Shown: positions 16,488-32,259, numbered from the stretch's first letter. The stretch is DNA of 64,000 nucleotides from Methylococcaceae bacterium (GCA_044351045.1 JBILGM010000001.1:7314-71313), one strand, 5' to 3'. Notes: generated by a model not told the origin, from the letters alone. A program made the numbers and translations.

Positions 16488-16520
16488 CGGCGTATTGCTC
16501 TGATGTACCTACTGGCAGTC

Positions 16521-16997
16521 AATAGCCCACACTAATGGCTTGCACCGTGGCCATTGCTTGAGATCCTTCACTCCCGATGGTCGTTCAGGATGACACCCAT
16601 TGTCGTGTCGTCCTGAGCTCATTGTGTCGTCCTGAGTGCAACGAAGGACCTCAAGCGACGGGCACCCAATAGCCCACAATGATGACCTGCACAGTGCCCA
16701 TCGCTTGGGATCCTTCAGCCGCTATCACGGCCTCAGGATGACACTGAGTCCGTAGCCAGCGATCCTTCACTCCCGCTGGTCGTTCAGGATGACATGCAAA
16801 AACACTGTCGTCCTGAGTGGAACGAAGGACCTCAAGCGACGGGCACCCAACAGCCCATAGCGATGGCCTGCACAGTGCCCATCGCTTGGGATCCTTCAGC
16901 CGCTATCACGGCTTCAGGATGACACTGAGTCCGTAGCCAGAGATCCTTCACTCCCGGTGGTCGTTCAGGGTGACACCCATTGTTGTGTCGTCCTGGT
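16521..16997 (-). repeat. Hairpin-module repeat array R1 (about 2.4 units, spacing 199 and 181 bp)
   Basis: The + strand carries reverse complements of modules M1 (GTGTCATCCTGAACGACC-NNN-GGGAGTGAAGGATCT) and M3 (GTGTCATCCTGAGGCCGTGATAGCGGCTGAAGGATC). Module M2 (GTGTCGTCCTGAGTGCAACGAAGGACCTCAAG) is in direct form. GATCCTTCAC recurs at 16562, 16761 and 16942. Confidence 0.9.
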
Positions 16998-17029
16998 TGG
17001 CCTTAAAAAGCCTCACACGGCGTGGGAAC

Positions 17030-18937
17030 TTAATGTTGGATAGTATCGGCCGGGCTGACGCTTAACCCTTTTGCCGACTCCTGATGCCTTGCCTTCAACA
17101 ATTTCTCAAGATTTTCCCTGGCGATGGTCGCGTCGGGCTCCAGACGCAACACCCGGGTGAATGTTTTTTCAGCCTCATCCAGCCTTCCTGTATTGGCTTG
17201 CAGGGTGGCTAGAAGATTCAAACCCGCGCTGTGGTTTGGCGAAAGCTTCAAGAATTCAAGCAGCGTGTCCTCGGCCAATGAGTTTTGCTGATGTTGCAGA
17301 TAGTAGCCGGCAAGCCCATACAGGCCTGAAGGATTGTTGGGCCCCCATTTCAGTGCGCTGCTCCATGCCAAGACAACCTTGCGTGACGAGGCGGGTGGGA
17401 CGGCAGTAGCCAATCGGCCGGCCTCCGCCACAAAGTATTCGGATACCACCCAGCGCAGCGGATAACTGGCAATGGTCAGGGCGACCAGAGACACCAGCGG
17501 GGCCGTGATGGGAGCGCGCCACCAAGGACAAAGCGGCATGGCCCGGGTACTGGCTCGTTTGCGCAGTTGTCCATACCACAGGCCGATACCCACGGCGGCC
17601 ATGAACAAGCTGGCGGGATTGAAAAACACATGATTCACCTGCGCATCCAGTGCCGCCGCCCACAGTGCCCAGGTAGCACAGAGCCACAAGGCATTGGGTT
17701 CGTGCCAGGCTTGCCTCATCACTTTCAGCATCAGCCACAGATAAAGCCCCGCAAACAGCAGTGTCAGGGGTAGCCCATTTTCCGCGGCAATTTGCAGAAA
17801 AATGTTGTGAGGATTGGTCTTGACGCGGATGCCCAGCGTCTCAAAGTCGCCAAACAGATCGTAGCGCTTGCTGAAACCCGGATACTCATAAAAGTAACTG
17901 CCGGTGCCAAATCCCAGCCATGGGCGCTCGGCCACCATCCCCGAGGTTGCGGCCCACATCGGCGTGCGTGAACCCAAGTACGGCGTAATGGCCATCCACA
18001 TCAGCGCGAGGGGGGGGGGTGATTTGGCCTGAGCGAAATCATTGGGCTTAGGCGCATTCCACCATTCGCCGCGCATGAACATTTGGTCTTTATATTCACT
18101 GGGTATCGATTGATAGGCCCAGAGACCTGCAAGCCCCATGAACACTATCGGGACCATAAGCTTTTTTATCTGATTAGCCGAAATCGCTCGTTTATCCCCT
18201 TTCAGTCTGCGCACCAATCCCATCAGACCCGCCACGCAGCTGCCTGCCAGCAGCCCCCCCATACCACCCAGGCTACCGCTGGTGGCCAGCATGAACAGAC
18301 TGGTCGCCAGTGAAAATCCCGACAACACTTTCACCCATACCGAGGTGTGTGTCAGTAGCGTCCATGTCATCAAAGGAATCAACATCATCATCACATCGGC
18401 CGTAAAGTTGAAATGGCCGATACGCGAGAACTGCACAAACTTGTTGAAATCCGGATGGTGGAAGTCGACCAAGAACCCATACCAGAAATGCGCACACAAA
18501 ACCAAGGCTGACATCGACAGCGCCCATTGCAAGTCATTCATGTACCGGGGCTCATGACCGCTGGCCCAGGCGCTCGCCCAAAGCGTCAGCCCTCCCGCGC
18601 ACCAGAAAGCGAGCCGGTTGACACCCGCATCGGGATTGGTGGCATATAGCACCCCGAAAGCCAGCCCCAGGAAAAACAGCACGAAAAATAGCCCAGGCCA
18701 GGAGAGCCCGGCTTGATCGGCGGGTTGTTTCGATTCCTGGTGATCGCAACAGACCAGACGGGCCCCAAACGATCCGGAAAGGGCCAGGACCAGCCCCAAA
18801 CTCACCAGAACAAACCACTTGGGCTCCTCGTTGGGTGCGATCATCGCGTTCCAGCGCAGGTTCAGCATAAAAGGCATGGCCACCAGGGGTGCCCACAGCA
18901 GAATACTCCGGGGGATAAAGTCGGATTTGGTCTTCAT
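17030..18937 (-). CDS. O-antigen ligase-like (Wzy_C) polytopic membrane protein with C-terminal TPR domain
   Basis: 635 aa with about 12 TM helices and a large loop typical of WaaL/PglL/Wzy_C proteins. The C-terminal region has TPR-like repeats (AEDTLLEFLKLSPNHSAGLNLLATLQANTGRLDEAEKTFTRVLRLEPD). Confidence 0.75.
   Translation of the reverse strand: MKTKSDFIPRSILLWAPLVAMPFMLNLRWNAMIAPNEEPKWFVLVSLGLVLALSGSFGARLVCCDHQESKQPADQAGLSWPGLFFVLFFLGLAFGVLYATNPDAGVNRLAFWCAGGLTLWASAWASGHEPRYMNDLQWALSMSALVLCAHFWYGFLVDFHHPDFNKFVQFSRIGHFNFTADVMMMLIPLMTWTLLTHTSVWVKVLSGFSLATSLFMLATSGSLGGMGGLLAGSCVAGLMGLVRRLKGDKRAISANQIKKLMVPIVFMGLAGLWAYQSIPSEYKDQMFMRGEWWNAPKPNDFAQAKSPPPLALMWMAITPYLGSRTPMWAATSGMVAERPWLGFGTGSYFYEYPGFSKRYDLFGDFETLGIRVKTNPHNIFLQIAAENGLPLTLLFAGLYLWLMLKVMRQAWHEPNALWLCATWALWAAALDAQVNHVFFNPASLFMAAVGIGLWYGQLRKRASTRAMPLCPWWRAPITAPLVSLVALTIASYPLRWVVSEYFVAEAGRLATAVPPASSRKVVLAWSSALKWGPNNPSGLYGLAGYYLQHQQNSLAEDTLLEFLKLSPNHSAGLNLLATLQANTGRLDEAEKTFTRVLRLEPDATIARENLEKLLKARHQESAKGLSVSPADTIQH
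18010..18019 (-). repeat. Homopolymeric G10 (C10 on the coding strand) inside the O-antigen-ligase-like gene
   Basis: GAGGGGGGGGGGT on the + strand. The coding strand reads TCA CCC CCC CCC CTC (S-P-P-P-L), near the middle of the ORF. Confidence 0.9.
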
Positions 18938-19089
18938 GCAGTGAAAGATTGCATCGTGTTTCGAGCTGATAAAACAGCCCGATAAATTCGGTCAGGTTAG
19001 CGGGTAAATTGGTGCAATTATGGCATTTTCATGCCAAGGGAATGTCTCGCGAAGTGTCTGGGTCGGAAGTGATGGGGGCATCTTCCCCG

Positions 19090-19432
19090 GTGTCATCCTG
19101 AGCTTATTGTGTCGTCCTGAGTGCAGCGAAGGACCTCAAGCTACCGCCGCCACCCCATAGCCCATAGCGATGGCCTGTGCCGGGGCTATTGCTTGAGATC
19201 CCTCAGCCGTTATCACGGCCTCAGGATGACACTGAGTCCGTAGCCAGAGATCCTTCACTCCCGCTGGTCGTTCAGGATGACACCCATTGTTGTGTCGTCC
19301 TGAGCTCATTGTGTCGTCCTGAGTGCAACGAAGGACCTCAAGCGACCGGCACCCCATAGCCCACAATGATGGCCTGTGCCGGGGCTATTGCTTGAGATCC
19401 TTCAGCCGTTATCACGGCTTCAGGATGACACT
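19090..19432 (-). repeat. Hairpin-module repeat array R2 (same polarity as R1)
   Basis: Contains M2 in direct form (19108-19140, 19301-19343) and reverse complements of M3 and M1. It fills the divergent intergenic region between 17030-18937(-) and 19528-20355(+). Confidence 0.9.
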
Positions 19433-19527
19433 TGGTAGATGTGGGCTGTTTAGAATGACCCGCAGGGCGCCACTACCATACGGCGGATTTTGTATCATCC
19501 TGATCTAACACCCAGCCGTCCCAGCCC

Positions 19528-20355
19528 ATGTCCCAAAGCGAAACCGACTACATCCCCTATCACGCCGAAACCCGTGTCGGTCGCGGACCGGCGCTGGTCT
19601 TTGCGCCGCATCCGGATGACGAAGTGTTTGGCTGTGCTGGCGCCATCATCCAGCATGTCGCCGATGGGGACGAAGTCACCGTCATCATCGTCACCGATGG
19701 CGCCTTTGGGGCTGGAAAGGATGGCGATGTGTATGCCCAAACCCGAGAAGCCGAAAGCCGCGCTGCGGGGGAAATCCTCGGCTATGGCGAGCCGATCTTT
19801 TGGGGCTTGCCGGATCGCGGGTTGATGTTTGACGACGCCCTGGTCGCCCGCATTGAGTCCGCGCTGGCCGAGTACCGTCCGGCCCTGGTTTACGCCCCCT
19901 CCTGGTGGGAAATCCACCCCGACCACACCGCCTTATCGCTGGCCGTGACCGAAGCGGTGGGTCGCGTTAACGATGAGATCCCGCTGATCCTCTATGAAGT
20001 CGGCGTCCCCCTCCATGCCAATCTTCTGCTGGATATCAGCGCTTGCCTGCCCAACAAGCAGGCCGCCATGGCCTGCTTTGCCAGCCAGATGGCCCAGCAA
20101 GCCTATGGCGATCACCTCTGGGCCCTCAATCGCTTTCGCAGCTATACGCTGCCGTCAACCGTCCATGCCGCAGAAGCCTATCGCCGCATCATCCGCCCCA
20201 TCGTGCGCCCGCCGGCCCCGCTGATGAGCCGAATGGATGCGCCGGTCATGGTGGCGCGTGCTGATGCGCTAGAGCGCCCTGCCGGGTATCCGCCGACGTT
20301 TTGGCCGCGTTTGATCCGGGGTATCCGCGCACTCCGCCAGTGGCTTAGATATTGA
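19528..20355 (+). CDS. PIG-L (LmbE-like) family N-acetylglucosaminyl deacetylase
   Basis: VFAPHPDDEVFGCAGAI is the PIG-L signature. Downstream HPDH and the overall length fit the family. Confidence 0.85.
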   Translation: MSQSETDYIPYHAETRVGRGPALVFAPHPDDEVFGCAGAIIQHVADGDEVTVIIVTDGAFGAGKDGDVYAQTREAESRAAGEILGYGEPIFWGLPDRGLMFDDALVARIESALAEYRPALVYAPSWWEIHPDHTALSLAVTEAVGRVNDEIPLILYEVGVPLHANLLLDISACLPNKQAAMACFASQMAQQAYGDHLWALNRFRSYTLPSTVHAAEAYRRIIRPIVRPPAPLMSRMDAPVMVARADALERPAGYPPTFWPRLIRGIRALRQWLRY

Positions 20356-20389
20356 GCACCGCTTGGTGCCTAAGCCGGGTTCCTGTCGG

Positions 20390-21157
20390 GTGTCGTCCTG
20401 AATGACCCACAACTACCGGGTGTCATCCTGAGGCCGTGATAACGGCTGAAGGATCTCAAGCCATGGGCACTGTGCGGGCCATGGTTGTGGGCTATGGGGT
20501 GCCGGTAGCGTGAGGTCCTTCGTTGCACTCAGGACGACACAGCGAGCTCAGGCCGACACAATGATTCATGTCATCCTGAACGACCACCGGGAGTGAAGGA
20601 TCTTAGGGTACGGACTCAGTGTCATCCTGAGGCCGTCATAGCGGCTGAAGGATCTCAAGCCATGGGCACTGTGCGGGCCATTGTTGTGGGCTATGGGGTG
20701 CCGGTCGCGTGAGGTCCTTCGTTGCACTCAGGACGACACAACGAGCTCAGGACGACACAATGATTCGTGTCATCCTAAACGACCGTCGGGAGTGAGGGAT
20801 CTCTGGCGACGGACTCAGTGTCATCCTGAGGCCGTGTTAACGGCTGAAAGATCCCAAGCCACGGGCACTGTGCGGGCCCTGGTTGTGGGCTATGGGGTGC
20901 CGGTCGCCTGAGGTCCTTCGTTGCACTCAGGACGACACAGCGAGCTCAGGCCGACACAATGATTCGTATCATCCTGAACGACCAGCGGGAGTGAAGGATC
21001 TCTGGCTACGGACTCAGTGTCATCCTGAAGCCGTGTTAACGGCTGAAAGATCCCAAGCCATGGGCACTGTGCGGGCCATGGTTGTGGGCTATTGTGTGCC
21101 GGTAGCCTGAGGTCCTTCGTTGCACTCAGGACGACACAACGAGCTCAGCACGACACG
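20390..21157 (+). repeat. Hairpin-module repeat array R3: four tandem 199-bp units
   Basis: GTGTCATCCTGA(G/A)GCCGT begins at 20420, 20619, 20818 and 21017, an exact 199-bp spacing. Each unit is M3, a core, reverse-M2, a spacer, then M1 (for example M3 20420-20460, reverse-M2 20512-20540, M1 20569-20603). Confidence 0.95.
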
Positions 21158-21436
21158 GCGGGGTTCACCATACCCCCCCCCAGGCTTCAGCGCATCACAA
21201 CCCCCAATCATCGCGCAGAATCGCCTCGGCCACGCTCAACCGGGTTGGAAATAGGGGAATTCCTCCCTACAGCGCCTTGTTGTAGTCTGGCAACTTTGTT
21301 GAAAGCGTGCAAAAAGGCCGCGCAAAAGCGGGTGCAAGCCACATTGGACGCGCCTTTGGGCGGGGGTCATGGCCGCCGCGGAAAGGCTGGGGAGAGGGGG
21401 GCTGACGATTTATTGTAGTTTTTTGGCAAATGACGC

Positions 21437-21466
21437 TTGACAGCCTGCGTGTGGGTGGACTAACTT
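21437..21466 (+). promoter_or_regulatory. Candidate sigma70-type promoter for the 442-aa secreted-protein gene
   Basis: TTGACA at 21437-21442 and TAACTT 18 bp downstream (21461-21466). This would give a leader of about 185 nt before the ATG at 21655. Confidence 0.3.
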
Positions 21467-21654
21467 ATCCCCACGCTCTCTGAAATGCCGATGTCTGCCC
21501 CAGTTCGTCTGGGGTCGGCCAACGGATGACGGAGTGGGCGGGAAACGGGGGACAATCTACAGGCTCCTGCTCTTCCGGTGTTTTGGGTGGTGATATCCGC
21601 AAGGGTTGAGCCAGACATGACAAAGTATAACGTTCTTATCGATAAGAGGATTTT

Positions 21655-22983
21655 ATGAAAACTAACTTTAAAAAATTGGCTCTGATGGCGGGTGTTTCCG
21701 CTGCCATGGCCGGTGGCAGCATGTCTGCTCACGCAGTGATTCAGGCGGTACCGGCTCCGGCAGCACTGATTCCATTGTTCAATGGTTGTGTAAACAACTC
21801 AAACAACAGCCAGATCAATGGTGGATTAACCAACTATGTCCGCATCGAAACCCCTTCCTCAGTCGGGGTTGATTCAATCGTAAATCTGTTCGGTGGCCCC
21901 AATGGGAACGCTTCAACCGGTGCTATCCCGGCTTCCGGCGTGGCGACAGGTCTGGCTACTTCCACACCGAGCAACTCTACGGTGGCGACCTCTAGGCTGC
22001 ACTGGTACTTCATGAGTCCCAACAGCGACGAGATCATTAACTCCGCTTTCCCGGTATCAGCCAATGACGTGATCGAATTCACGAACTGCGCTATGCCAAC
22101 CACCCAAATTAGCTCTGCGGGTTCAATGACGACAGTTGCAGTAGGGTCCCAATCCTCAGGTTATCTGGTCATTATCAATGATTCAGCCGCCTTGGGTGGC
22201 GCTCCGTTGTTCTCGTTCCAGGCTGATTCCTACAGGGTTAATACTGCTGGTCTCAATTCGTCGACCGTCTACGAGAACATTCCCGTCTATCCGTTGACGG
22301 ATACCGCCGACAACGGTGCGGGTGCCCCGACGCTGGCTAACAACGTGATCGAAGACGTCTCCGGCATTGCTGGTGGCGCACCGTTTGGTACCGGCCCAGT
22401 GGTTTCTCCGCTGATGAGCGGTATCCGCTTGGGTGCGACCAATGCATCTGGCGCACCTTATGGCTGGTATCGCGTCATTGACTTCCCAGTTATCAACGGG
22501 AATGATACCTACGTAGTGTGGGCGGATCGTAATTCAACGACCAACGTGGTCAATGGTACGATTCAGACCACCCCGGCAATCTACGGTACGACGCTGACCT
22601 ATGACTGCAACGAAAACGTACTGTCTACCGGTCCGTTGAGCTTTGTAGATCAGCTTAACTTCCTGACTGTTGGTACCACCAACAGTACTGCTCAGACTAG
22701 TACTGTTGCTAATTTCGACGCATACAGCAACTTGTTCCAGCCGATCGGAGCTACTACCGCTCAGTCCACTGGATGTAACATTGCTGTGTCTGGCATACCT
22801 ACTGCACTCACTGGAACGAATACCAGCAGTGGTTTTGTTCGCTACTTTGCTCAGTCCAACCCCTACACGGGTGATCTGACGGGTGCGGCCTACCAGGCAT
22901 CGGTCATCTTCAGACTGCGTAACAGCGCTTCTGAAGCGACCTACCAGTTCCCGGTTGACCGCGGTTTCTTCACCGCCAAGTAA
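21655..22983 (+). CDS. Secreted Ser/Thr/Asn/Gly-rich protein of unknown function (candidate abundant surface or S-layer-type protein)
   Basis: Sec signal peptide MKTNFKKLALMAGVSAAMAGGSMSAHA. There is a strong SD (AAGAGGA, 5 nt before the ATG), visibly different codon usage from its neighbours, and two hairpin terminators downstream. I recognise no known domain. Confidence 0.8.
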   Translation: MKTNFKKLALMAGVSAAMAGGSMSAHAVIQAVPAPAALIPLFNGCVNNSNNSQINGGLTNYVRIETPSSVGVDSIVNLFGGPNGNASTGAIPASGVATGLATSTPSNSTVATSRLHWYFMSPNSDEIINSAFPVSANDVIEFTNCAMPTTQISSAGSMTTVAVGSQSSGYLVIINDSAALGGAPLFSFQADSYRVNTAGLNSSTVYENIPVYPLTDTADNGAGAPTLANNVIEDVSGIAGGAPFGTGPVVSPLMSGIRLGATNASGAPYGWYRVIDFPVINGNDTYVVWADRNSTTNVVNGTIQTTPAIYGTTLTYDCNENVLSTGPLSFVDQLNFLTVGTTNSTAQTSTVANFDAYSNLFQPIGATTAQSTGCNIAVSGIPTALTGTNTSSGFVRYFAQSNPYTGDLTGAAYQASVIFRLRNSASEATYQFPVDRGFFTAK

Positions 22984-22997
22984 GTCGGTAATCGGTT

Positions 22998-23024
22998 ACC
23001 GGTCAGTACTCGGTACTGACCGGT
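22998..23024 (+). terminator. Hairpin downstream of the secreted-protein gene
   Basis: ACCGGTCAGTAC-TCG-GTACTGACCGGT, a perfect 12-bp stem, but no T-tract follows. Confidence 0.45.
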
Positions 23025-23044
23025 TCGGTTAGATCGATTATCAT

Positions 23045-23076
23045 GAAACGGCCCGCATGCGGGCCGTTTCTTTTTG
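23045..23076 (+). terminator. Rho-independent terminator
   Basis: GAAACGGCCCGC-AT-GCGGGCCGTTTC followed by TTTTT. Confidence 0.8.
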
Positions 23077-23093
23077 TATCGCCAGCAATAAAA

Positions 23094-24377
23094 ATGTCTC
23101 GATCGTTTTACCAAACAAAACCATCTAAATGGCGCTCTGCTGGAGGGCGCATAGCCATTGGGTCAGCCGTGTTTGCCCTCGGCGCACTGCTCCTGTTGGG
23201 CTGTCAGGATCCCGATCAACCAGACACCCCGTCCGGGTTCGGACAACGCATTCCCTGGGTCGGTATGGCTTTCGATATCCTGGCGGCCGACCTTGATGGC
23301 GATAGTCGTCCGGACTTGACGGTCGTCGACCATGGCGGCAATCAAGCCCAGATTTTTTATCAGCAACCGCCCCGGCAGTTCACGGCGGGGCCAAGATTTG
23401 ACGGCGTCGGCTTTCACCCCGGCAACCTGTTTCGCTGGCCGGGCGAGCCCGCCCGCTTCCTGCTGAGTGCCGAGGGGGACAACGCTATTCGGGTGTTGTC
23501 GCCAGACAAAGCGGCGGGCTTCAAGGTGGAGTCCCAGCTGGAAGCAGTCAAGCCGCGCTATGGCAACCTGTTCCGTTGGCCAGGCTGGGGCGACAGCTTG
23601 GTCCTGTCCCCCTTTGACATGGACAGCCTGTTTCTGCTGAAGCGTTTCGATCCGGGCACGGGCAAGGCCGAGGAAACCCTGCAAATCGCGCTTGCCGAAC
23701 AACCGCCGTCTGTCCTGTGGCCCGGGCCGCTGACAGTGACCGATATCGACCGGGATGGCAGTGACGACATCCTGTATGCCACACCCATCACCCGTCAGGT
23801 GTTTGCGGTGCAGGCACCAAAAAATACCGAGTCAAAGAGCAAAAAAAAGGCGAAGGGAAAACCGAAGCCGAACCCCATCAAGCCGCGTCTGCTTGCCGAA
23901 AGTCCCGGTTGGGGCGGACCAACCCAGGTCCTGGCCGCTGATCTTGATCGCGATGGCGCGGATGACCTTCTGGTACCGGACGAAACCAAACCGGGCAAGA
24001 TCAACGTGATTATGAACGATGGTCAGGGTCATTTTACGGTCACCCAGCCCTTGGATTCACCCAACGAGTTAGGGATTACCAAACTGCAAACCGCCATCGA
24101 TCACGATGGTCAGCGCTATATCCTCGCCGCTGGGTTTGGGGTGATGGCCTTGCACCAAGTGCCTGAGCAGTGGCAAGTCAGTCAGCCCATGGTCTCCCGA
24201 CATGTTCGCTGGAAGCGCGGCGACTATGCCACGGCGTTGGCCCTGCATGATCTGGACGGAGATGGCTGGCTGGATGCGGTGTTGGCCCGTCAGCAGGGTG
24301 GGGAATTGAGGGTTTTATATGGCCCGTTATGGGAAAATTTTAAGCAATGGTCCGACCCCTCGGTGGATCTGGATTAA
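23094..24377 (+). CDS. FG-GAP/VCBS repeat lipoprotein
   Basis: ORF 23043-24377. The ATG at 23094 is preferred because 23045-23076 is a terminator. Lipobox LLLGCQD. Repeated Ca-binding-like motifs DLDGDSRPDL, DIDRDGSDDIL, DLDRDGADDLL and DLDGDGWLDAV are present. Confidence 0.75.
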   Translation: MSRSFYQTKPSKWRSAGGRIAIGSAVFALGALLLLGCQDPDQPDTPSGFGQRIPWVGMAFDILAADLDGDSRPDLTVVDHGGNQAQIFYQQPPRQFTAGPRFDGVGFHPGNLFRWPGEPARFLLSAEGDNAIRVLSPDKAAGFKVESQLEAVKPRYGNLFRWPGWGDSLVLSPFDMDSLFLLKRFDPGTGKAEETLQIALAEQPPSVLWPGPLTVTDIDRDGSDDILYATPITRQVFAVQAPKNTESKSKKKAKGKPKPNPIKPRLLAESPGWGGPTQVLAADLDRDGADDLLVPDETKPGKINVIMNDGQGHFTVTQPLDSPNELGITKLQTAIDHDGQRYILAAGFGVMALHQVPEQWQVSQPMVSRHVRWKRGDYATALALHDLDGDGWLDAVLARQQGGELRVLYGPLWENFKQWSDPSVDLD

Positions 24378-24411
24378 TGACATCATTCGTTTGAACGAGA
24401 GGAAATTCACC

Positions 24412-25389
24412 ATGAAATTGACCCATCTGCGGGCTGGCGTCAGCCTTTTGAGTCTCTGTCTGCTGGCCGATGTAAGCTTGGCTGCTAAAGCCCCGGCCAA
24501 AACCAACGAGGCAAAACAGCCGCCGGCAGCCGAGGCGGCAAAACCGGTTGACTACAGCAAGCTGCCGGCGCTGGAACAGCCGTTGATTCTGGTGGATGGT
24601 TTTAGCATCAACAGTCAGGACTACCTGAATTTCCTGCAGAACAACCCCACCATCATGAGCCGGGCGGCCAATACGGAAACCGGCAAGACAGAGGCCATCC
24701 GGGAATTGACACGGACTTATCTGCTGCGCAAGGCAATGTATGACCAAAAATTGCTGAACAAGGATGACAAGGAGCCGCCGACGCCCAATATGATTGCCGC
24801 CGCTTATGAAAAGTTGGCCAAACAGCATTTCCCGGCACCGCCGGCCCCGGACGAGAAAACCGCCTATGCCTATTATCAGGCTCATCAGGACAACTATGGC
24901 ATTCCTGGCAATTACCGGCTGAACCAGATTCTGATCAAAACGCCCACTAATCCTGATCCTGCCGTACTGAAGGCGGCCGAGGAGCGGGCCCAGGCCGCCC
25001 TGAAGCGCCTGACGGCGGGTGAGGCATTCAGTGCGGTGGCTAGCGAGCTGACCGAGAGCACCATTGGCAAGCTGACGGGGGGGGATATCGGGTATGTCGA
25101 TCCGGCCGAGCAGCCCTGGCTGAAAGAGTCGCTGCTGAAAATGAAAGTGGGTGATCGGGTGGGCCCGATCAAGAGCCCGGAAGGGGTGGTGGTGCTGGAG
25201 TTGACCGACATCCGACCCGCGCTGATCTCGCCCTACGGCAATGTGCGCGACAAGGTCATCAAGGACTATCGCGACGAGCAGCAAAAGAAGGTCCGCGATG
25301 CGTATGTGCTGGAGCTAGCCAAGGGCGTCAAGATCGAAGTCGCTGCCCCCAGTATCCAGTCATTGTTCCCTAACGGGGTCTTGCCATGA
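24412..25389 (+). CDS. Parvulin-type peptidyl-prolyl isomerase (SurA/PpiD-like), secreted
   Basis: The ATG at 24412 gives the signal peptide MKLTHLRAGVSLLSLCLLADVSLA. The PpiC domain pattern is YRLNQILIK ... GGDIGYV ... VGPIKSPEGVVVLEL. Confidence 0.8.
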   Translation: MKLTHLRAGVSLLSLCLLADVSLAAKAPAKTNEAKQPPAAEAAKPVDYSKLPALEQPLILVDGFSINSQDYLNFLQNNPTIMSRAANTETGKTEAIRELTRTYLLRKAMYDQKLLNKDDKEPPTPNMIAAAYEKLAKQHFPAPPAPDEKTAYAYYQAHQDNYGIPGNYRLNQILIKTPTNPDPAVLKAAEERAQAALKRLTAGEAFSAVASELTESTIGKLTGGDIGYVDPAEQPWLKESLLKMKVGDRVGPIKSPEGVVVLELTDIRPALISPYGNVRDKVIKDYRDEQQKKVRDAYVLELAKGVKIEVAAPSIQSLFPNGVLP

Positions 25390-25892
25390 GCTTGAAACAG
25401 CACTGGAAGTGGCTGGCGATTGGTGCGCTGCTGCTCGCGGCGGGTTATGCCGGGTTTGACTTCCAGAATCGGCACAGTGAGGCCACCCTGCTGGCCCGTG
25501 CCCATCAGTATTGGGAGGCCCGCCGATTGAACGATTACCTGACCGCCTATGAGCTGGAAGCCGAAACCGCCAATGGCCAACTGGCGCCGGATGAAGTGGA
25601 GACGCGGCCGGAATGGGGTCAGCGCCTGTACAGCTACAAACTCGGGTCCGTGGATTATTACAATGGCCATGCGGAAATTGAATTGACGACCGAGTACCTT
25701 ATTCGTGAATTGTCCAAACCCGCGGGTGGGGGGACGGCTAAAGACTTGTGGACCTTCATCAAGGGCCAGTGGTATCACGGCGCGCCGGAAAAAGGCGGCG
25801 CCGGAATCCGCAAGCCGGGCTCTGCCCAACCCCTGCCACCTGCTAACCCGACTGAACCCGCCCCGGCGCCCGCGCCCGCGCCCGCGCAGTAA
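25386..25892 (+). CDS. Membrane-anchored hypothetical protein with Pro/Ala-rich tail
   Basis: 168 aa. The start overlaps the stop of the PPIase gene (ATGA). It has an N-terminal TM helix and the tail PPANPTEPAPAPAPAPAQ. Confidence 0.55.
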   Translation: MSLKQHWKWLAIGALLLAAGYAGFDFQNRHSEATLLARAHQYWEARRLNDYLTAYELEAETANGQLAPDEVETRPEWGQRLYSYKLGSVDYYNGHAEIELTTEYLIRELSKPAGGGTAKDLWTFIKGQWYHGAPEKGGAGIRKPGSAQPLPPANPTEPAPAPAPAPAQ

Positions 25893-25911
25893 GGGTGTGG
25901 GGGAGGGTTGG

Positions 25912-26325
25912 CGTTTTGTGCTGGTCGCTTGGGGTCCTTCGTTGCACTCAGGACGACACGGTGATGGGTGTCATCCTTCGCGGGGCTTAGGCCGACCGGG
26001 TGGGTCAGGGCTGCCAATGGGTGTCATCCTGAACGACCCGCGGGAGTGAAGGATCTCATGCTATGGCCCCCTGCAGGCCATGGTGGCGGGTTATTGGGTG
26101 CTGATAGCCTGAGGTCCTTCGTTGCACTCAGGACGACACGGTGATTCGTGTCATCCCTTGCGGGGCTTAGGCCGACCGGGTGGGTCAGGGCTGCCAATGG
26201 GTGTCATCCTGAACGACCCGCGGGAGTGAAGGATCTCAGGCTATGGCCCCCTGCAGGCCATGGTGGCGGGTTATTGGGTGCTGATAGCCTGAGGTCCTTC
26301 GTTGCACTCAGGACGACACGGTGAT
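25912..26325 (+). repeat. Hairpin-module repeat array R4: 180-bp tandem units (2 full copies plus a partial)
   Basis: GGTCCTTCGTTGCACTCAGGACGACAC (reverse-M2) begins at 25933, 26113 and 26293, an exact 180-bp spacing. M1 (GTGTCATCCTGAACGACCCGCGGGAGTGAAGGATCTC) occurs in each unit. Confidence 0.95.
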
Positions 26326-26394
26326 GGTCTAATCCGCCTGCGCGGTCACCGGGGCGAATCATAGGCAAAAGACATCAATCCGGCTGATTCACTC

Positions 26395-26688
26395 ATGCAA
26401 GACCGGCAATATGACGTTTACATGATGACCAACCAGAGCAATCGGGTGCTCTATACCGGCATCACCAATGATCTTGGTCGGCGCGTGTATGAGCACCAGC
26501 ATAAGCTCTGCAAGGGGTTCACGGCCAAATATAATGTTGAGAAGCTGGTGTTCTTTGAGGTCACTTCGGATGTTGAATCCGCCATTACCCGAGAGAAGCA
26601 AATCAAGGGCTGGGTGCGTGCAAAAAAGAATGCGCTGGTGGGATCGATGAATCCTGATTGGCGTGATTTGAGCGTCGATTTCATGTAG
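26395..26688 (+). CDS. Small stand-alone GIY-YIG nuclease family protein (COG2827/YhbQ-like)
   Basis: 97 aa. YDVYMMTNQSNRVLYTGITNDLGRRVYEH (GIY...YTG), followed by EKLVFFE ... AITREKQIKGW.R.KK. This is the classic single-domain GIY-YIG layout. Repeat arrays R4 and R5 lie immediately on either side. Confidence 0.85.
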   Translation: MQDRQYDVYMMTNQSNRVLYTGITNDLGRRVYEHQHKLCKGFTAKYNVEKLVFFEVTSDVESAITREKQIKGWVRAKKNALVGSMNPDWRDLSVDFM

Positions 26689-26699
26689 GCGAGTGGTAT

Positions 26700-26880
26700 T
26701 GGGCTTGGGGTTTTGTGCCGGTCGCTTGGGGTCCTTCGTTTCACTCAGGACGACACAGTGATTTGTGTCATTCTTCGCTGCACTCAGTACGATACGTTGG
26801 GTCAGTGCTGCTATTGGGTGTCATCCTGAACGACCTGCGGGAGTGAAGGATCTCAGGTTAGGGGCACCCAGCAGGCGGCT
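26700..26880 (+). repeat. Hairpin-module repeat copy R5 (single unit)
   Basis: It contains reverse-M2 (GGTCCTTCGTTTCACTCAGGACGACAC, 26729-26755), a degenerate copy, then M1 (GTGTCATCCTGAACGACCTGCGGGAGTGAAGGATCTC, 26817-26853). Confidence 0.9.
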
Positions 26881-26914
26881 GTGTTTGGGCGCTGGTTTTA
26901 CTGGAATAACGATA

Positions 26915-27724
26915 ATGGCGGCTTCGATGGGTGCTTTCAGGGGATTTTTGGCTGCTTACTGGGGGCCGCTGAAGCATCTGGTGGTTTACCGCGACTTGTT
27001 CCTTCGCTTGATCCGGCGCGACATCATCAGCCGAACCAGCGGGACGTTGCTGGGGGCGGCGTGGTTAATCATTCAGCCCGGTCTGCAGGTGCTGGCCTTC
27101 TGGTTTCTGCTGGATTTTGTCCTCAAGGTCCGGTCTCCCGGAAGGGTGGCTTTCCTCGATTACTTTCTGGTGGCCATGTTGCCGTGGCTGTTCATCAGCG
27201 ACACGCTGACGCGTTCTCTCGGTGTGCTGAGTGAGTTTAGTAGCCTCTATCAGCGCACTATCTTTCCTGTGGCTGTGTTGCCGCTGATCCCGTTGGGGAT
27301 GTCTTTGCTGGTCTATGGCCCGGTTTACGCGGTGGTGTGCGGTGTGCTGATCGGACCGGGGGCGGCGGCCCAGGGGGTTGCGGTTTTGGGACTGATGGCT
27401 CTGTGGCTGTTGCCCTGGGTCTATCTATTGGCCATCGTCGGTCTGTTTTTCAAGGAATCGCGTCAGTTGGTCCCCTTTCTGCTGACCATGGTGATGTATG
27501 TGACGCCTATCCTCTACCAGCCGGCGGCTTTGCCGGATTCGGTCCAGACGTTGTTGGCCTGGAACGTGGTAGCGGATGGGGTGGCGCTGATCGAGGGCTG
27601 GCTGTTTGATTCGCCGGTGACCCCGCGCAATGGTTGGCAGCCAGTGCTGCTGTGGCTGGTGACGATGCCGCTGTCCTGGTGGCTGTTCCGCCGCGCCGAG
27701 CCGCATTTGCGGGAGGCATTATGA
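26915..27724 (+). CDS. wzm: ABC-2 type polysaccharide export permease (Wzm/TagG-like)
   Basis: ORF 26765-27724. The upstream part lies in repeat R5, so the ATG at 26915 is preferred (MAASMGAFRGFLAAYWGPLKHLVVYRDLFLRLIRRDIISRTSGTLLGAAW, the typical Wzm opening). Six TM helices. Confidence 0.8.
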   Translation: MAASMGAFRGFLAAYWGPLKHLVVYRDLFLRLIRRDIISRTSGTLLGAAWLIIQPGLQVLAFWFLLDFVLKVRSPGRVAFLDYFLVAMLPWLFISDTLTRSLGVLSEFSSLYQRTIFPVAVLPLIPLGMSLLVYGPVYAVVCGVLIGPGAAAQGVAVLGLMALWLLPWVYLLAIVGLFFKESRQLVPFLLTMVMYVTPILYQPAALPDSVQTLLAWNVVADGVALIEGWLFDSPVTPRNGWQPVLLWLVTMPLSWWLFRRAEPHLREAL

Positions 27725-28968
27725 ATCCGGTCATTTGCCTGGAGGGTGTGGGCAAAACCTACCGAACCTATGCGCATGCGAGAGACCGCTTTTGGGAGTT
27801 GCTGACCAGCCGACCGCGCTACCGGGAGACGGTCGCTTTGCAGGCGCTCGATCTGCGAGTCGATCCGGGTGAGGTGGTGGGGATCATTGGCATGAATGGC
27901 GCCGGCAAAAGCACGTTGCTCAAGCTGATTGCCGGGACCTTGCCGCCTGATCAGGGTGACATTCGGGTGGCGGGTCCGGTGTGTGCCCTGCTGGAGCTGG
28001 GGGCGGGTTTTCATCCCGACATGTCGGGGCGCGACAATATTTTCCTGGGGGCGGCGGTGGCCGGCATGCCGGCGGCCCGGATAAAAGCACAGGTGGATGA
28101 GATCATCGAGTTTGCCGGTCTTAGAAAGTCGATCGATCAGCCGGTGAAAACCTATTCGTCAGGCATGATGATGCGCCTGGCTTTTTCGGTGGCGACGGCG
28201 GTGGATCCGGATTTGTTGATTCTGGATGAAACCTTGTCGGTGGGGGATGGGGCTTTTGCGCGCAAATCCTTCCAGCGCATCATGCAATTCAAGGAGGCGG
28301 GGAAGACCATTCTTTTCTGCTCGCATTCGATGTACCAGATTCAGGCGATCTGCAGCCGGGCGATCTGGATCGATCAGGGTGAAATGAGAATGGACGGTGA
28401 TCCTGGCCCCGTGGTGGCCGCCTACAATGATTATCTGGGGCTGTATGAACAGGCGACGATGGCTGATGCGAAGGCCAATGTCGCGGCTGCCCCCGCCGGC
28501 GCAGCGGCAGATTCAGCGGTTCAGCCTGTCGTCAGCGCGCGACTGCTCAAGGTGTCTGTGCGCGCCGGCGCGTTTTCGGGTCTTAAGCTGCCGCTGACCA
28601 GTGGCACGGTGGATGTGTCGGTGGGGGTCAGTTTTCAGTCGGATCCTGCGCTGAAGCCGCCCAGTGTGGGGGTGACCATCACGGCATCCAGCGGAGTGCC
28701 GGTGACGAGCGCCGGGACGCATGTGGACGGGATGCGGGTTGAGCGTTGCTCAGACGGTCGCGGCGAGGTCGAGCTGACATTTCCCAGGCTGCCTTTGTTG
28801 CAGGGGAGTTACTGGGTGAACGTGTTTTTGCTCTGCGATCGGGGGCTGCAGCTTTATGACAAGGCGCAGTTGGTGTCCGAGTTGGAGGTCACCCAGAATA
28901 CGCTGGAGATGGGTGTGGTGACCTTGCCCCATCACTGGTCTGGCGTGGGGCCGGCGGATCAATCTTGA
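27721..28968 (+). CDS. wzt: Polysaccharide ABC exporter ATPase with C-terminal glycan-binding-type extension (Wzt-like)
   Basis: The ATG at 27721 overlaps the wzm stop. Walker A GMNGAGKST, signature YSSGMMMRLAF and Walker B LLILDE are present. An extra beta-rich C-terminal domain of about 170 aa follows, as in Wzt proteins. Confidence 0.85.
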   Translation: MNPVICLEGVGKTYRTYAHARDRFWELLTSRPRYRETVALQALDLRVDPGEVVGIIGMNGAGKSTLLKLIAGTLPPDQGDIRVAGPVCALLELGAGFHPDMSGRDNIFLGAAVAGMPAARIKAQVDEIIEFAGLRKSIDQPVKTYSSGMMMRLAFSVATAVDPDLLILDETLSVGDGAFARKSFQRIMQFKEAGKTILFCSHSMYQIQAICSRAIWIDQGEMRMDGDPGPVVAAYNDYLGLYEQATMADAKANVAAAPAGAAADSAVQPVVSARLLKVSVRAGAFSGLKLPLTSGTVDVSVGVSFQSDPALKPPSVGVTITASSGVPVTSAGTHVDGMRVERCSDGRGEVELTFPRLPLLQGSYWVNVFLLCDRGLQLYDKAQLVSELEVTQNTLEMGVVTLPHHWSGVGPADQS

Positions 28969-28969
28969 G

Positions 28970-30355
28970 GTGGAGCATAGGGCTTTGATGCCTGCCCCGC
29001 TGGCTGCGGGACAGTCGGTCTGGTGGACCCCACCCGCTGAGGCAGGCGACAACCCGGACGTGCCGGAGTGGTTGCTCGCCTATGCGGCGGGTTGCCCTGT
29101 GGTGACGGCCCCGGCATCGGCACGATCAGCCCATGATCGCTTTGTCTGGGTGGTGGTCGATCAGGCACTCGATTCTGACTGGGTGCTGAATGGCCTGGCT
29201 GATCTGGCTGAGCCACTCGAGGATGAGGGATGGCTCTGGATTCGGTTGTTTCCAGTGGCGGCCCATGAGCGGGCGGGTAAGCCGCGGTGGCAGTGGCTGG
29301 TGGACCTGGCTTGCCGGCAAGGCTACGAGTACGCCGGCCAGCAGCCTATTCACTCGTTAGGCGATTATCTTGTCTTCAAAAAGTCGGCCAGTCTGATTCA
29401 TCGCTGGCGACTTCGCTGCCCCACTCGGCAAGATGAGGCGGGTTGTCATGCTCTTTTCCTGCGGGCCTTTAACCACCCTATCAGCCCCGCATTATGGCGC
29501 TGGAAGTATGGCTCTGGACGGGGTCGCGCTACGATGGCGATGCGCGGTGAGCAGGTGATTGCCAATTATGGCTGTGTGACCCGGCGGATATGGCTGCGGG
29601 GTCGAGAAACCCGGGCATTGCAGATTTGCGATGTGATGGTGGATCCGTCAGAGCGGGCCATCATGACCCGGACCGGAGCGTTTTTTCAGGTGGCCAAGGC
29701 GGCCCAGGAGGCGTTCATCGGTTTTGGAGCTGACCATGAGTTAGGTTACGGTTTCCCCAATCAGCGGCATATGCAGCTAGCTGAAAAGATGGGCTTGTAT
29801 GATGAGGTTGAGCGACTGGTCGAATTGGAGTGGCCAACCGCGGTGCATCAGCGCCATGCATGGACTACCACGGCGCAGCTGGGTGCTGGCCAGGTAGACA
29901 AACGCTCGCTGGCGAGGGTGTGGGAGAGGATGCGACGTCGGATGAAAGATCACATCCTTGTGGCTCGTGATCCGGACTATTGGCAGTACCGCTATGCGGA
30001 GCACCCGGAGCAGGATTATGCGATGTTGTCGGTGAGTCAGCGGCTGACCGGTCGGCTCATGGGGGTTGCGGTGTTGCGACGCGAAGCGGAGGAATGCAAA
30101 CTGCTGGATGTTCTGGCAGAGCCTGGACACATGGGCTTGCTGGTTTCTCACGCCAGACGGCAGGCGGCCAAATGGGGCCTGCCGGTGTTAAAGGCCTGGG
30201 TGACCGACCATTGCGCCCAGTGGCTGGCAGGCCCTGATGCCATCCGTCGTCCTACGGATATCGTCATTCCTCTGAATATCCATGCCCCATTACACCGGAC
30301 AGAAGAGGTGAGGGGTCGCTGGTTTCTGATGATGGGGGATACGGATTTTTTGTAG
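28970..30355 (+). CDS. Two-domain hypothetical protein; the C-terminal half is GNAT/acyl-transferase-like
   Basis: 461 aa. It starts (GTG 28970 or ATG 28988) 2 nt after the wzt stop. The segment ALWRWKYGSGRG...VIANYGCV...LQICDVMVDPSER resembles GNAT-fold acyltransferases. The N-terminal roughly 130 aa are unassigned. Confidence 0.45.
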   Translation: MEHRALMPAPLAAGQSVWWTPPAEAGDNPDVPEWLLAYAAGCPVVTAPASARSAHDRFVWVVVDQALDSDWVLNGLADLAEPLEDEGWLWIRLFPVAAHERAGKPRWQWLVDLACRQGYEYAGQQPIHSLGDYLVFKKSASLIHRWRLRCPTRQDEAGCHALFLRAFNHPISPALWRWKYGSGRGRATMAMRGEQVIANYGCVTRRIWLRGRETRALQICDVMVDPSERAIMTRTGAFFQVAKAAQEAFIGFGADHELGYGFPNQRHMQLAEKMGLYDEVERLVELEWPTAVHQRHAWTTTAQLGAGQVDKRSLARVWERMRRRMKDHILVARDPDYWQYRYAEHPEQDYAMLSVSQRLTGRLMGVAVLRREAEECKLLDVLAEPGHMGLLVSHARRQAAKWGLPVLKAWVTDHCAQWLAGPDAIRRPTDIVIPLNIHAPLHRTEEVRGRWFLMMGDTDFL

Positions 30356-30424
30356 GGGTTGAAAGGGTGTTCTGCTCTGTTTGCTTTGAATACCGTTGTG
30401 CTTGGGGTTGCGGTTGGGGGCTTG

Positions 30425-30918
30425 GGGTCAGGCTTTGGTTTTTGTGCCAGTCGCCTGAGGTCCTTCGTTTCACTCAGGACGACACAGTGATTTGTGTCAT
30501 CCTGAAGCCGTGATAACGGCTGAAGGATCTTAGGACAGGGGCACTGAGCAGGTGGCTTGGGTCAGGGTTGGGGCTTTTGTGCTGGCCGCCTGAGGTCCTT
30601 CGTTTCACTCAGGACGGCAGGGTGATGGGTGTCATCCTGAAGCCGTGATAACGGCTGGGATCTTAGGACAGGGGCGCTGAGCAGGTGGCTTGCGGCCAGG
30701 GTGGGTGTTTGGTGCCGGTAGCCTGAGGTCCTTCGTTGCACTCAGGACGACACACAGATGGGTGTCATCCTGAAGCCGTGATAATGGCTGAAGGATCTTA
30801 GGACAGGGGCGCTGAGCAGGTGGCTTGCGGTCGGGCTTGGGTTTTGTGCCAGTCGCCTGAGGTCCTTCGTTGCGCTCAGGACGTCACAGGGGGTGATGAG
30901 TGAAACGAAGGACCTAAG
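30425..30918 (+). repeat. Hairpin-module repeat array R6: about 3.5 tandem units of roughly 134 bp
   Basis: GGTCCTTCGTT (reverse-M2) begins at 30459, 30594, 30727 and 30861. Each is followed by M3 (GTGTCATCCTGAAGCCGTGATAACGGCTGAAGGATCTTAGG). The array ends with a direct-form partial M2 (GAGTGAAACGAAGGACCTAAG, 30898-30918). Confidence 0.95.
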
Positions 30919-30942
30919 CCTGAAAACACGGCCTGCGTTGCA

Positions 30943-32259
30943 ATGGTTACCTCTCGAAACATTGGCAGATCACTGACCGGGACTCATCGAATGCACGATC
31001 ATCGTTTGGCTATCACTGATCCTCGGGTTGTGCTCAGCCAGATGACTTTTGTCATTGTCGGCATCAATCTGGTGGCGGGTATGAGCTCAATTCCCTCTGT
31101 GGGCTGGATGTTCATGCATCACCCGGATGATTTTCGGGATTACACCTGGACTGCAATTTTTGACTTTCTGTGGGGTTTGCGCACGGGTATCCCCCCGTTT
31201 TTGGCGGGGCTCGAGCTGGTGTTAGTCAAGTTGACGGGTTCGGCTCACTGGGTGACGGTTTATGGCTATCAGGTGGCATTGATCAGTGTCTATCTCCTGG
31301 CTATGCAACTTGCCAGGGCTACGTCTTGGCGCTACGGGCTGTCGGTGTTGGCGAGTGGGGTTTTTTTTTACACGACGGTACTGGTCCATCCGGCCGTGCC
31401 GGCAAGCTACGATCTGTTTTTTCCTGCTTTTTTTCTTCTGTTTGTCACGCTTTTGCAGTGGGCCATTGCCAGGGCGGAGGGTTGCTGGGCGATGGCTGCG
31501 GCAGTTCTGAGCGGCTTCTTTCTCGCCATGACGGAGCTCAGCCGGCCTTTTGTGATTTACTGGCTGCCGATGTTGCTGTTTATCACAGGGCGAATGGTGG
31601 GCCGGAATCGGGGGGTCTGGTTGGGGTTTATGGCTCCGATTGTCTTGATTTCCGGGCTATGGCATGTGCATTTGTATCTGGATTTCAGGCAACTGACGTT
31701 TACCAACCATACGGGGGCGAATTTGGCGCGGGGCTGGCCCCAGGTGGAGCATGCCGCTCCCATTGACGAGACGTCGGGAGTTGCGGTGCGGCCGGGGCGA
31801 TGGTTTGACCGTAATACGGAGGTCCACACGCAAAATAGTCGAATGCTGGAAAGGGCGGTATTCCGGTATTGGCTGGACAACCCTTGGGCTAGTGTCCGGC
31901 ATCTGGCATACCGACTTAGCGAACTGTTGTCAGCGAAGACACGGTTGTACAGCCATGATCCCCAGTCCTGGGTGCTATGGATCTATCGGCCCATGGTTTG
32001 GTTGACGGTCGGAATTTTATTGGGAGCGGTCCTTTTCTGGGGGCGCGAGGCTTTTGGTCGAGGAAATGGGATTGATTGGCCGGCGAGCGGTGGCGACATC
32101 ATCGTAACGGGGTTCACACTTTACTGCCTGCTTGTCCTGGCGATTGGCGAGGCAGGGGAAGAGGCGCGCTTGCTGATTTCTGTGTTGCCGATGTTGGCGG
32201 TGTGTCCTCTGCCCAACGGACGATTATTGATGGCGTTCAAAAAAACCTGTTCCCCTTAA
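30943..32259 (+). CDS. Polytopic membrane protein, possibly a GT-C-type (ArnT/PMT-like) glycosyltransferase (start uncertain; alternative 30991)
   Basis: 438 aa with at least 10 hydrophobic helices and a soluble loop. The assignment rests only on topology and gene context. Confidence 0.4.
   Translation: MVTSRNIGRSLTGTHRMHDHRLAITDPRVVLSQMTFVIVGINLVAGMSSIPSVGWMFMHHPDDFRDYTWTAIFDFLWGLRTGIPPFLAGLELVLVKLTGSAHWVTVYGYQVALISVYLLAMQLARATSWRYGLSVLASGVFFYTTVLVHPAVPASYDLFFPAFFLLFVTLLQWAIARAEGCWAMAAAVLSGFFLAMTELSRPFVIYWLPMLLFITGRMVGRNRGVWLGFMAPIVLISGLWHVHLYLDFRQLTFTNHTGANLARGWPQVEHAAPIDETSGVAVRPGRWFDRNTEVHTQNSRMLERAVFRYWLDNPWASVRHLAYRLSELLSAKTRLYSHDPQSWVLWIYRPMVWLTVGILLGAVLFWGREAFGRGNGIDWPASGGDIIVTGFTLYCLLVLAIGEAGEEARLLISVLPMLAVCPLPNGRLLMAFKKTCSP

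Follow-up and report, generated by a model that had tools for sequence, protein, structure and literature searches.

Six intergenic sites in the surface-glycan region of a Methylococcaceae bacterium are filled with arrays of short hairpin-forming repeats, and the question raised by this locus is what, if anything, recognises them. The arrays, named R1 to R6, span 16.5-30.9 kb of a stretch of 64,000 nucleotides (GCA_044351045.1 JBILGM010000001.1:7314-71313), hereafter the window. A sequence-only reading had placed the six arrays at coordinates where we find them all, had split them into three modules (M1, M2 and M3) and had pointed to possible RNA structures. It did not mention the gene located between R4 and R5 (26395..26688, plus strand), which encodes a 97-aa single-domain GIY-YIG protein of the ssn family. 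As argued below, the arrays are probably mosaic clusters of (C/T)GTC-tagged DNA hairpins, similar in organisation to bacterial interspersed mosaic elements (BIMEs) and neisserial intergenic mosaic elements (NIMEs), and recognised by Ssn nucleases, one of which is encoded between R4 and R5.

The nuclease gene and its bracketing hairpins

The window protein carries a Pfam GIY-YIG domain at residues 8-78 (E = 1.3e-16), and its AlphaFold2 model is a bare GIY-YIG fold with a mean predicted local distance difference test score of 93.5, whose closest structures are the UPF0213 protein 1zg2 and then Slx1. It is 47.3% identical, over 96% coverage (E = 2e-21), to the 94-aa SsnA orthologue of Neisseria gonorrhoeae (MQPAVY...). 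By way of this orthologue, it qualifies as an Ssn homologue under the definition of Chenal 2025, that is E<1e-10 and at least 75% coverage to Neisseria SsnA (PMC11893778). Its residues Y9, Y20 and E67 correspond to Y6, Y17 and E64 of SsnA, which were mutated in that study; among 33 homologues, Y20 and E67 are invariant and Y9 is found in at least 90%. Overall, the window protein has 1264 homologues at E<1e-5, with a clade that remains 60-89% identical across very distant phyla.

The Neisseria enzyme provides the reference for what follows. SsnA is a 94-aa GIY-YIG protein whose binding site is the dRS3-containing NTS hairpin (Chenal et al. 2025, Nat Commun 16:2388; PMC11893778). It binds and cuts single-stranded DNA (ssDNA) only, not double-stranded DNA, RNA or the reverse strand, and cleavage occurs a few nucleotides upstream of the hairpin. 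Cleavage is controlled by the three bases that precede the palindrome and binding by the C that follows it. In the same study, ssnA homologues were flanked by their own hairpins, described by a motif named SRM, as in the NTS-ssnA-NTS architecture, with a reported association of 71%; DNA flanked by NTS showed reduced transformation in Neisseria (PMC11893778).

The association between gene and tagged hairpins extends to the homologues of the window gene. Among the closer homologues, which come from many phyla, 24 of 26 loci are bracketed by (C/T)GTC- or CCTC-tagged hairpins, compared with none of the 26 loci of distant homologues (at most 40% identity). Ten close loci, at 60% identity or more, were analysed individually: the window, Chthoniobacter, P0008, P0018, P0020, P0030, P0044, P0072, P0077 and P0094. 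The carriers of close homologues include Chthoniobacter, Patescibacteria (two copies in one genome), Tissierellaceae, Alkaliphilus and Chloroflexota. First, hairpins flank the gene on both sides within 500 bp at all ten, the window gene included. Second, in 10 out of 10 a hairpin with the frame of the window modules (detailed in the next section) starts in a range running from 27 nt ahead of the stop codon's end to 42 nt past it. Third, in seven of them a distance of 5-77 nt separates the start from the end of a hairpin upstream. In the window, M2 copies lie 77 nt upstream and 42 nt downstream of the gene, and seven modules are found within 600 nt. A metagenome-assembled genome of Chthoniobacter carries a 60%-identical GIY-YIG gene exactly within a pair of hairpins whose heads point outside, and at another close locus, beside AbiEii and EpsG, M3-like and M1-like arrays stand on either side of the gene, as in the window.

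Near the close genes, 20 of 118 candidates selected on the anchors only had a perfect closing stem, for 0.12 expected, and the controls gave 0/254 and 0/234. Likewise, a model trained on the window modules only matched the flanks of the nuclease gene at eight other loci and at none of 26 controls. Homologues on plasmids and chromids follow the same rule with hairpins of their own, 10 of 12 being bracketed: Neisseria gonorrhoeae (dRS3-type), Azospirillum lipoferum, Sinorhizobium meliloti (CCTC tag), Planktothrix, Spirosoma, Novosphingobium, Sphingobium, Aeromonas, Rhizobium and Shinella. Four homologues on viral contigs (46-56% identity) are flanked by TGTCATCCCGG...CCGGGACCCAG dimers instead. 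In the reverse direction, a tblastn search with the window protein found the gene at a single locus among 156 anchored on the motif, as predicted by a gene-to-repeat ratio far below one.

Two side observations concern these loci. A homologue of 65% identity on plasmid p1 of Planktothrix agardhii (18150-19822) has arrays of hairpins of the window type on both sides and lies between an MmeI-type restriction-modification gene and the DISARM gene drmA, hence inside a defence island. In addition, the C-terminal extensions annotated in the homologues P0030, P0056, P0112 and P0116 (…CHSE, …ILRSRSE, …AVILKEQSD) match the translated downstream hairpin, so that gene callers evidently read into the repeat.

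A tagged hairpin with a tandem G·A and a free interior

In each module a TGTC head precedes a closing stem of 5 bp, and the stem is followed by a tandem G·A and then by a nested hairpin free in both sequence and length; we refer to this arrangement as the GA-type hairpin. The tag TGTC is present in 34 of 36 aligned modules and the C after the stem in 36 of 36. The closing stem (5 bp plus the next pair) is 98.5% paired, for 25-52% in slid controls. The shared frame, closing stem, opposed GA dinucleotides and variable inner hairpin proposed by the sequence-only reading are confirmed. The pairs 8-37 and 15-30 alternate between A-T and G-C from one module type to another, and these are the compensatory substitutions that the same reading had recommended looking for. 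It was equally right about the variants: the M1 inner triplets are ATC, AGC, ACC, GTC, CGC and TGC, and the M3 loops GATAA, GTTAA and CATAG. Loops measure 3-6 nt and the module tail is CTC(A). M3 folds significantly better than shuffled sequences, and the 199-nt unit folds, as predicted, into a long imperfect inverted repeat (z = -4.1). The commonest interiors are GCGNAGC and GTGCAAC, which belong to the GNA type, known to form stable DNA mini-hairpins. As a side observation, one strain variant of M2 (L292, 1790-1885) keeps the frame and has its 7-nt interior replaced by an insertion of about 50 nt; the interior thus tolerates large changes.

Within the window, the modules are confined to the arrays. 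The 12-nt head GTGTCRTCCTGA (at most 1 mismatch) has 47 matches for 0.49 expected, nearly all of them within 16.5-30.9 kb. A covariance model built from 36 modules and run with filters off retrieved 37 copies, all inside the six arrays and none outside them in the 64 kb at E<=1, and a frame detector that checks the stem found 32 perfect frames within 16401-31000 and none in the rest of the window. The absence of copies elsewhere therefore stands as first described, with about 37 modules rather than the roughly 25 first counted, plus head-only duplicates: 10 M1, 16 M2 and 11 M3, of which 3 M3 are degenerate. In every case M2 is inverted relative to M1 and M3, again as proposed, and these inverted pairs put the motif on both strands.

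The frame is not private to this genome. The pattern GTGTCRTCCTGA-N4-30-GAAGGAYCT was found in 36 IMG/VR contigs and at least 120 genome loci, covering together at least 15 phyla, among them Acidobacteriota, Chloroflexota, Bacillota, Bacteroidota, Patescibacteria, Planctomycetota, Verrucomicrobiota and Fibrobacterota. These genome and viral matches show no conservation beyond the frame and no T-run; their commonest interior is GCGNAGC, and their interiors have a self-complementarity of 1.84 bp, for 0.40 bp in shuffles. An M2-type pattern searched in metagenomes gave 61 single-copy loci of other organisms, usually as head-outside doublets. The partner arms of 54 such doublets, which lay outside the search pattern, form 35 perfect stems for 0.13 expected, and these belong to six types (ATCCT, ACTCT, ATTCT, GTCCT, ATGCT and ATCCC). 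Among 267 sites in other genomes, 92 are head-outside, or head-to-head (HH), dimers, 9 are tail-to-tail (TT) and 6 head-to-tail; the window arrays contain both HH and TT junctions. Crude gene calls place 43 sites between convergent and 20 between divergent genes. Longest-ORF (open reading frame) calling put 84 of the 267 sites inside ORFs, a count deemed unreliable in GC-rich DNA and left unused.

How do these hairpins relate to described families? Di Nocera et al. 2013 divided repetitive extragenic palindromes (REPs) into GTAG- and CGTC-tagged superfamilies (PMC3733652). In the CGTC superfamily, whose members include dRS3 of Neisseria and RPE-4 and RPE-6 of Rickettsia, the tag is often TGTC or CCTC, the stems start with A-T, T-A, the tail has 3 nt, HH dimers predominate and no dedicated transposase is known (PMC3733652). 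The window hairpins resemble it in their unpaired TGTC tag, stems that in most cases open with A-T, T-A, short unpaired tail, head-outside dimers, mostly extragenic location and lack of a dedicated transposase. However, the families CGTC-1 to CGTC-4 have perfect stems of 8-9 bp, loops of 4-5 nt and a CCA tail, a definition that does not cover a stem interrupted by G·A, loops of 3-6 nt and a CTC(A) tail. The module-encoded peptides VILSEAKDL and SFASLRMT are absent from the list of intragenic repeats of that study (PMC3733652).

The likeness to the Ssn system comprises the gene, a single-domain GIY-YIG of about 95 aa with the same catalytic residues; the order repeat-gene-repeat; hairpins of 20-50 nt whose (C/T)GTC head is unpaired and whose stem is followed by a C; and repeats that far outnumber the gene and are concentrated near surface-related genes. 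The differences lie in the hairpin, whose stem has only 5 bp followed by the tandem G·A and the nested free hairpin, in the grouping of the modules into tandem mosaic units of 135-199 bp, which Chenal 2025 does not mention (PMC11893778), and in the protein clade, conserved at 60-89% over such distant phyla. The SRM motif, HGTCWYN(0-2)YYVSBRHN(0-5)WNVSBRGN(0-2)RNCYNB, does match its positive controls (Neisseria 7, Azospirillum 4, Rhizobium 5, Shinella 4), and it matches no GA-type hairpin at six other loci. As side observations, it also misses hairpins flanking ssnA homologues in S. meliloti (L298, CCTC-tagged), in Novosphingobium (L301) and on a viral contig (L255), the tagged hairpins missed being CCTC-tagged, CGTCGCCCCGTG-type and TGTCATCCCGG-type. 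The 71% association is probably an underestimate, since the SRM motif misses such hairpins.

The arrays resemble the BIMEs of E. coli, built of Y and Z REPs, and the NIMEs of Neisseria: their hairpins come in two types, distinct at a few positions, that invariably alternate in orientation, linkers are conserved, units are amplified in tandem and their copy number varies between strains. In contrast, the REPs of BIMEs have a GTAG head and a RAYT (REP-associated tyrosine transposase), perfect dRS3 palindromes delimit the units of NIMEs, and neither has sequences related to the window modules. The sequence-only reading had allowed that the modules might match a described family: this holds for the kind (CGTC/TGTC REPs and SRM hairpins) and fails for the published motif definitions. 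Its exclusion of GTAG-type REP, ERIC, Correia and BOX elements stands, and searching the literature with the module sequences as text gave nothing useful. Thus the link between gene and repeat was already known (PMC11893778), as were the repeats since 2013 (PMC3733652); new here are the hairpin architecture, which is a separate structural type, its breadth across phyla and the organisation in tandem mosaic arrays.

Proposed single-strand cutting and the competing explanations

If the arrays serve Ssn, the following scheme can be proposed. When the locus becomes single-stranded, as transforming DNA or as a replication or conjugation intermediate, the strand that reads TGTC-stem-...-stem-C would fold. 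By homology with SsnA of N. meningitidis, the nuclease would bind the hairpin together with its unpaired tag and the C that follows the stem, and would cut a few nucleotides upstream. With M1/M3 and M2 on opposite strands, either strand would offer sites. The ssDNA of the surface-glycan locus would then be fragmented at six places, and for the genes flanked by the arrays this would modulate recombination and transformation. The hairpin-ssn-hairpin cassette would be an IS-like (insertion sequence-like) or domesticated element with the arrays as its gene-less derivatives, and arrays would grow and shrink by unequal recombination between modules. The cutting of GA-type hairpins by the window homologue, like its effect for the organism, is proposed here by analogy with Neisseria.

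More tentatively, the GA-type hairpin could be a distinct, undescribed Ssn recognition class paired with one clade that moves between at least 15 phyla, Gram-positives and Patescibacteria included, and that would read the sheared G·A and the tag and tolerate any interior. The arrays would fence the surface-glycan locus and set how its incoming or replicating ssDNA is cut. We regard this extended proposal as plausible and stop short of calling it probable. Separately, the loci examined suggest that the whole CGTC-tagged REP superfamily is the Ssn repeat set.

Several observations weigh against a role of the arrays as Ssn sites. First, two homologue loci, in Photobacterium and R. tumorigenes, have no adjacent hairpin. 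Second, the window gene lies inside an array with M2 on the minus strand on either side, not within a simple head-outside pair. Third, the SRM motif matches 0 of 37 window modules, with one chance match elsewhere in the window, and recognition rules may hence differ. Fourth, the stem of M2 opens with G-C, not A-T. Fifth, nearest-neighbour folding of single modules does not make M1 and M2 significantly more stable than shuffles; we assume that its parameters may undercredit G·A tandems or GNA loops, and this result was not counted against structure. Finally, by the crude gene calls, single hairpins share the strand of co-directional genes in 26 cases against 10, a bias that would also fit an RNA-level or transcription-linked role.

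The strongest competitor is a purely selfish IS-like element, whose arrays would be copies of the MITE (a miniature transposable element with inverted repeats) or REPIN (REP doublet) kind, spread by Ssn-made ssDNA breaks and devoid of host function. Several observations fit such an element. In A. lipoferum 4B, an ssnA-like gene with a dimer of CGTC hairpins on each side is inserted between sufB and sufC, a cassette absent from A. ramasamyi (flanks 96.8% identical) and other Azospirillum, and 33 places of the A. lipoferum 4B plasmids match the dimer, for 0-3 in relatives. Another cassette lies between prmC and prfA. In the Patescibacteria genome GCA_004297215.1, two paralogous hairpin-ssn-hairpin cassettes, about 88% identical in nucleotides, occupy unrelated loci. 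Protein identities of 60-75% across phyla suggest horizontal spread, gene-less hairpin sites far outnumber genes (the gene being present at 1 of 156 motif-anchored loci), and Chenal et al. themselves remarked on the IS-like architecture (PMC11893778).

What makes an element without host function less likely is the behaviour of the window locus. Among related strains, seen as metagenome assemblies (JGI, ENA), R4 has 1, 2, 3 or 4 units of 180 bp (spacers of 323, 503, 683 and 863 bp) and R5 has either no extra unit or one, of 133 bp, made of an inverted M2 and an M3 and placed directly after the nuclease stop codon. This is the strain polymorphism that the sequence-only reading had suggested looking for. 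The boundaries of gained or lost units fall in direct repeats, and we saw no target-site duplications there; arrays change by whole units rather than by new insertions. The GIY-YIG gene itself keeps a single, fixed position in all strain variants observed, like a domesticated RAYT. Moreover, a transposition chemistry is not known for GIY-YIG enzymes, and a host phenotype, on transformation, is documented in Neisseria (PMC11893778).

Some features of the cassette sites may be recorded here. Close relatives of A. lipoferum 4B have an empty sufB-sufC spacer of 30-130 bp, Shinella sp. PSBB067 has a GIY-YIG match within its own sufB-sufC interval (H25 within H48), and a Sphingomonas record has a DUF559 gene in that position. 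The Patescibacteria cassettes (L242 1463-2000 and L252 1463-2000) are located at leuS-ugd and terC-rplU; their similarity runs from about 12 nt before the left TGTC tag to a sequence resembling a tRNA 3' end (GTTCGAATCCCGTCGGNTCCACCA). ARAGORN called no tRNA at the ends of these cassettes, nor any tRNA gene in the window or at cassettes in general.

Far less probable is that the modules act as structured RNA, be it a stabiliser, an attenuator, a protein-binding motif with tandem sheared G-A pairs, or a ribozyme or riboswitch of a new class, the direction in which the sequence-only reading had pointed. Most modules are intergenic and they are underrepresented where genes diverge, the strand bias of single hairpins is given above, the polarity of M1 and M3 in the window follows the neighbouring genes, and classical REPs have been co-opted as mRNA stabilisers (PMC12306157). 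Yet dimers and arrays carry the motif on both strands, so that half of the copies would be antisense in any transcript; flanks are not conserved past the tag and lack a T-run; and R2 occupies a divergent promoter region. Rfam 15 gave no match at gathering scores over the whole window and chance-level matches only at E<=5 within 16400-31000. The interiors are GNA-type DNA mini-hairpins. The tag is of the Ssn type, the repeats are linked to the gene, and the cognate enzyme family does not bind RNA (PMC11893778). Given the mild strand bias, there may be a secondary RNA-level effect. Hammerhead, k-turn, box C/D and attC elements were also considered for the frame and rejected, as their core motifs do not fit.

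Still more improbable is a classical REP/BIME mobilised by a RAYT, that is a Y1 HUH transposase, or a set of MITEs of a conventional insertion sequence. Such an origin would account for short extragenic palindromes with an unpaired 5' tag, for a unit that folds as a long inverted repeat, and for the alternating orientation, conserved linkers and tandem amplification seen in BIME-2 (PMC2817692). The tag is TGTC and not GTAG, however, and tblastn with nine RAYT/TIRYT sequences found none in the window (best E = 0.15), and 283 loci (1.7 Mb) contained two Y1-transposase matches, one about 2.2 kb from a hairpin (L208) and one in L069. No transposase recurs among the neighbour-gene clusters of the 156 motif-anchored loci, Di Nocera et al. 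2013 found none linked to CGTC repeats (PMC3733652), and we saw no target-site duplications at the unit boundaries. Lastly, plain decaying duplications of arbitrary intergenic sequence would fit tandem, local arrays (six sites in 15 kb, none in the other 49 kb) that vary by whole units between strains, but this explanation is barely tenable because 36 viral contigs and at least 120 genome loci from at least 15 phyla share the 12 + 9-nt frame while their interiors and flanks are unrelated, besides the compensatory stem changes and the specific association with one gene family.

The preferred interpretation, tagged DNA hairpins read by an Ssn nuclease, has several implications. To our knowledge, Ssn are the only site-specific ssDNA endonucleases, and they are under development as tools; each new pair of enzyme and site is thus of practical value. 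The GA-type hairpin, which the SRM motif misses and whose interior is seemingly free, would widen the known specificities and the taxonomic range. At the loci examined, the orphan CGTC-tagged REPs (dRS3, RPE, rhizobial repeats) are the flanking repeats of ssnA homologues, and this joins two literatures; the Ssn paper (PMC11893778) does not cite the CGTC classification (PMC3733652). In the window, six strain-variable arrays divide an O-antigen/glycan cluster, a type of locus where control of recombination could matter.

Layout of the six arrays

The arrays partition a surface-glycan cluster with genes for Wzy_C, PIG-L, a Wzt-type ABC transporter and GNAT proteins, downstream of mreB, mreC, PBP2 and rodA. 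One member of the 90% protein cluster carries the annotation of a Pseudomonadota metagenome-assembled genome. Tandem Repeats Finder (TRF) returned periods of 181, 199, 180 and 135 bp, four where three had been claimed. That array polarity follows the flanking genes is true only loosely, R2 lying between divergently oriented genes.

R1 (16521..16997, minus strand) has a period of 181 bp by TRF and is flanked by a 236-aa ORF and the Wzy_C gene, both on the minus strand. It reads M1(-) 16561-16596, a head-only copy 16605-16623 with M2(+) 16624-16651, M3(-) 16708-16744, M1(-) 16760-16795, M2(+) 16805-16832, M3(-) 16889-16925, M1(-) 16941-16976 and a head-only copy 16985-16996. R2 (19090..19432, minus strand) fills the divergent intergenic region between the Wzy_C gene (minus strand) and the PIG-L gene (plus strand), with two M2(+) copies (19109-19136 and 19311-19338) that both have a 19-nt head duplicate in front of them, M3(-) at 19196-19232 and 19395-19431, and M1(-) at 19248-19283. 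R3 (20390..21157, plus strand), downstream of the PIG-L gene, contains 3.7 units of 199 bp, in which M3(+) is followed by a linker that carries the palindrome CCATGG, then by M2(-), a head duplicate(-) and M1(+).

R4 (25912..26325, plus strand) is made of 2.3 units of 180 bp in the order M2(-), head-only module (GTGTCATCC...), M1(+) and linker. R5 (26700..26880, plus strand) has M2(-) at 26729-26756, a degenerate head-to-head module at 26766-26795 and M1(+) at 26818-26853. An additional head-only module is present in R4 and R5, beside the 19-nt head duplicates of R1-R3. R6 (30425..30918, plus strand), flanked by the GNAT gene and the plus-strand gene that follows, has 3.5 units of about 135 bp composed of a linker, M2(-) and M3(+); one degenerate M3 lies at 30627-30668 and a headless M2 fragment closes the array.

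The 19-nt head duplicate GTGTCGTCCTGAGCTCATT, which has no 3' half, precedes every M2 in R1-R3 (16605-16623, 19090-19108, 19292-19310, 20541-20559, 20740-20758, 20939-20957 and 21138-21156), and it is this duplicate that accounts for the difference between units of 181 and 199 bp.

Homopolymer tracts were also noticed at the locus. Tracts of this kind can drive phase variation in surface-glycan genes. A C9 run is found at 21173-21181, just past R3, and the Wzy_C-type gene (17030-18937, minus strand) contains a G10 run at 18010-18019, read as C10 on the coding strand, which has the same length in the strain contig L037.

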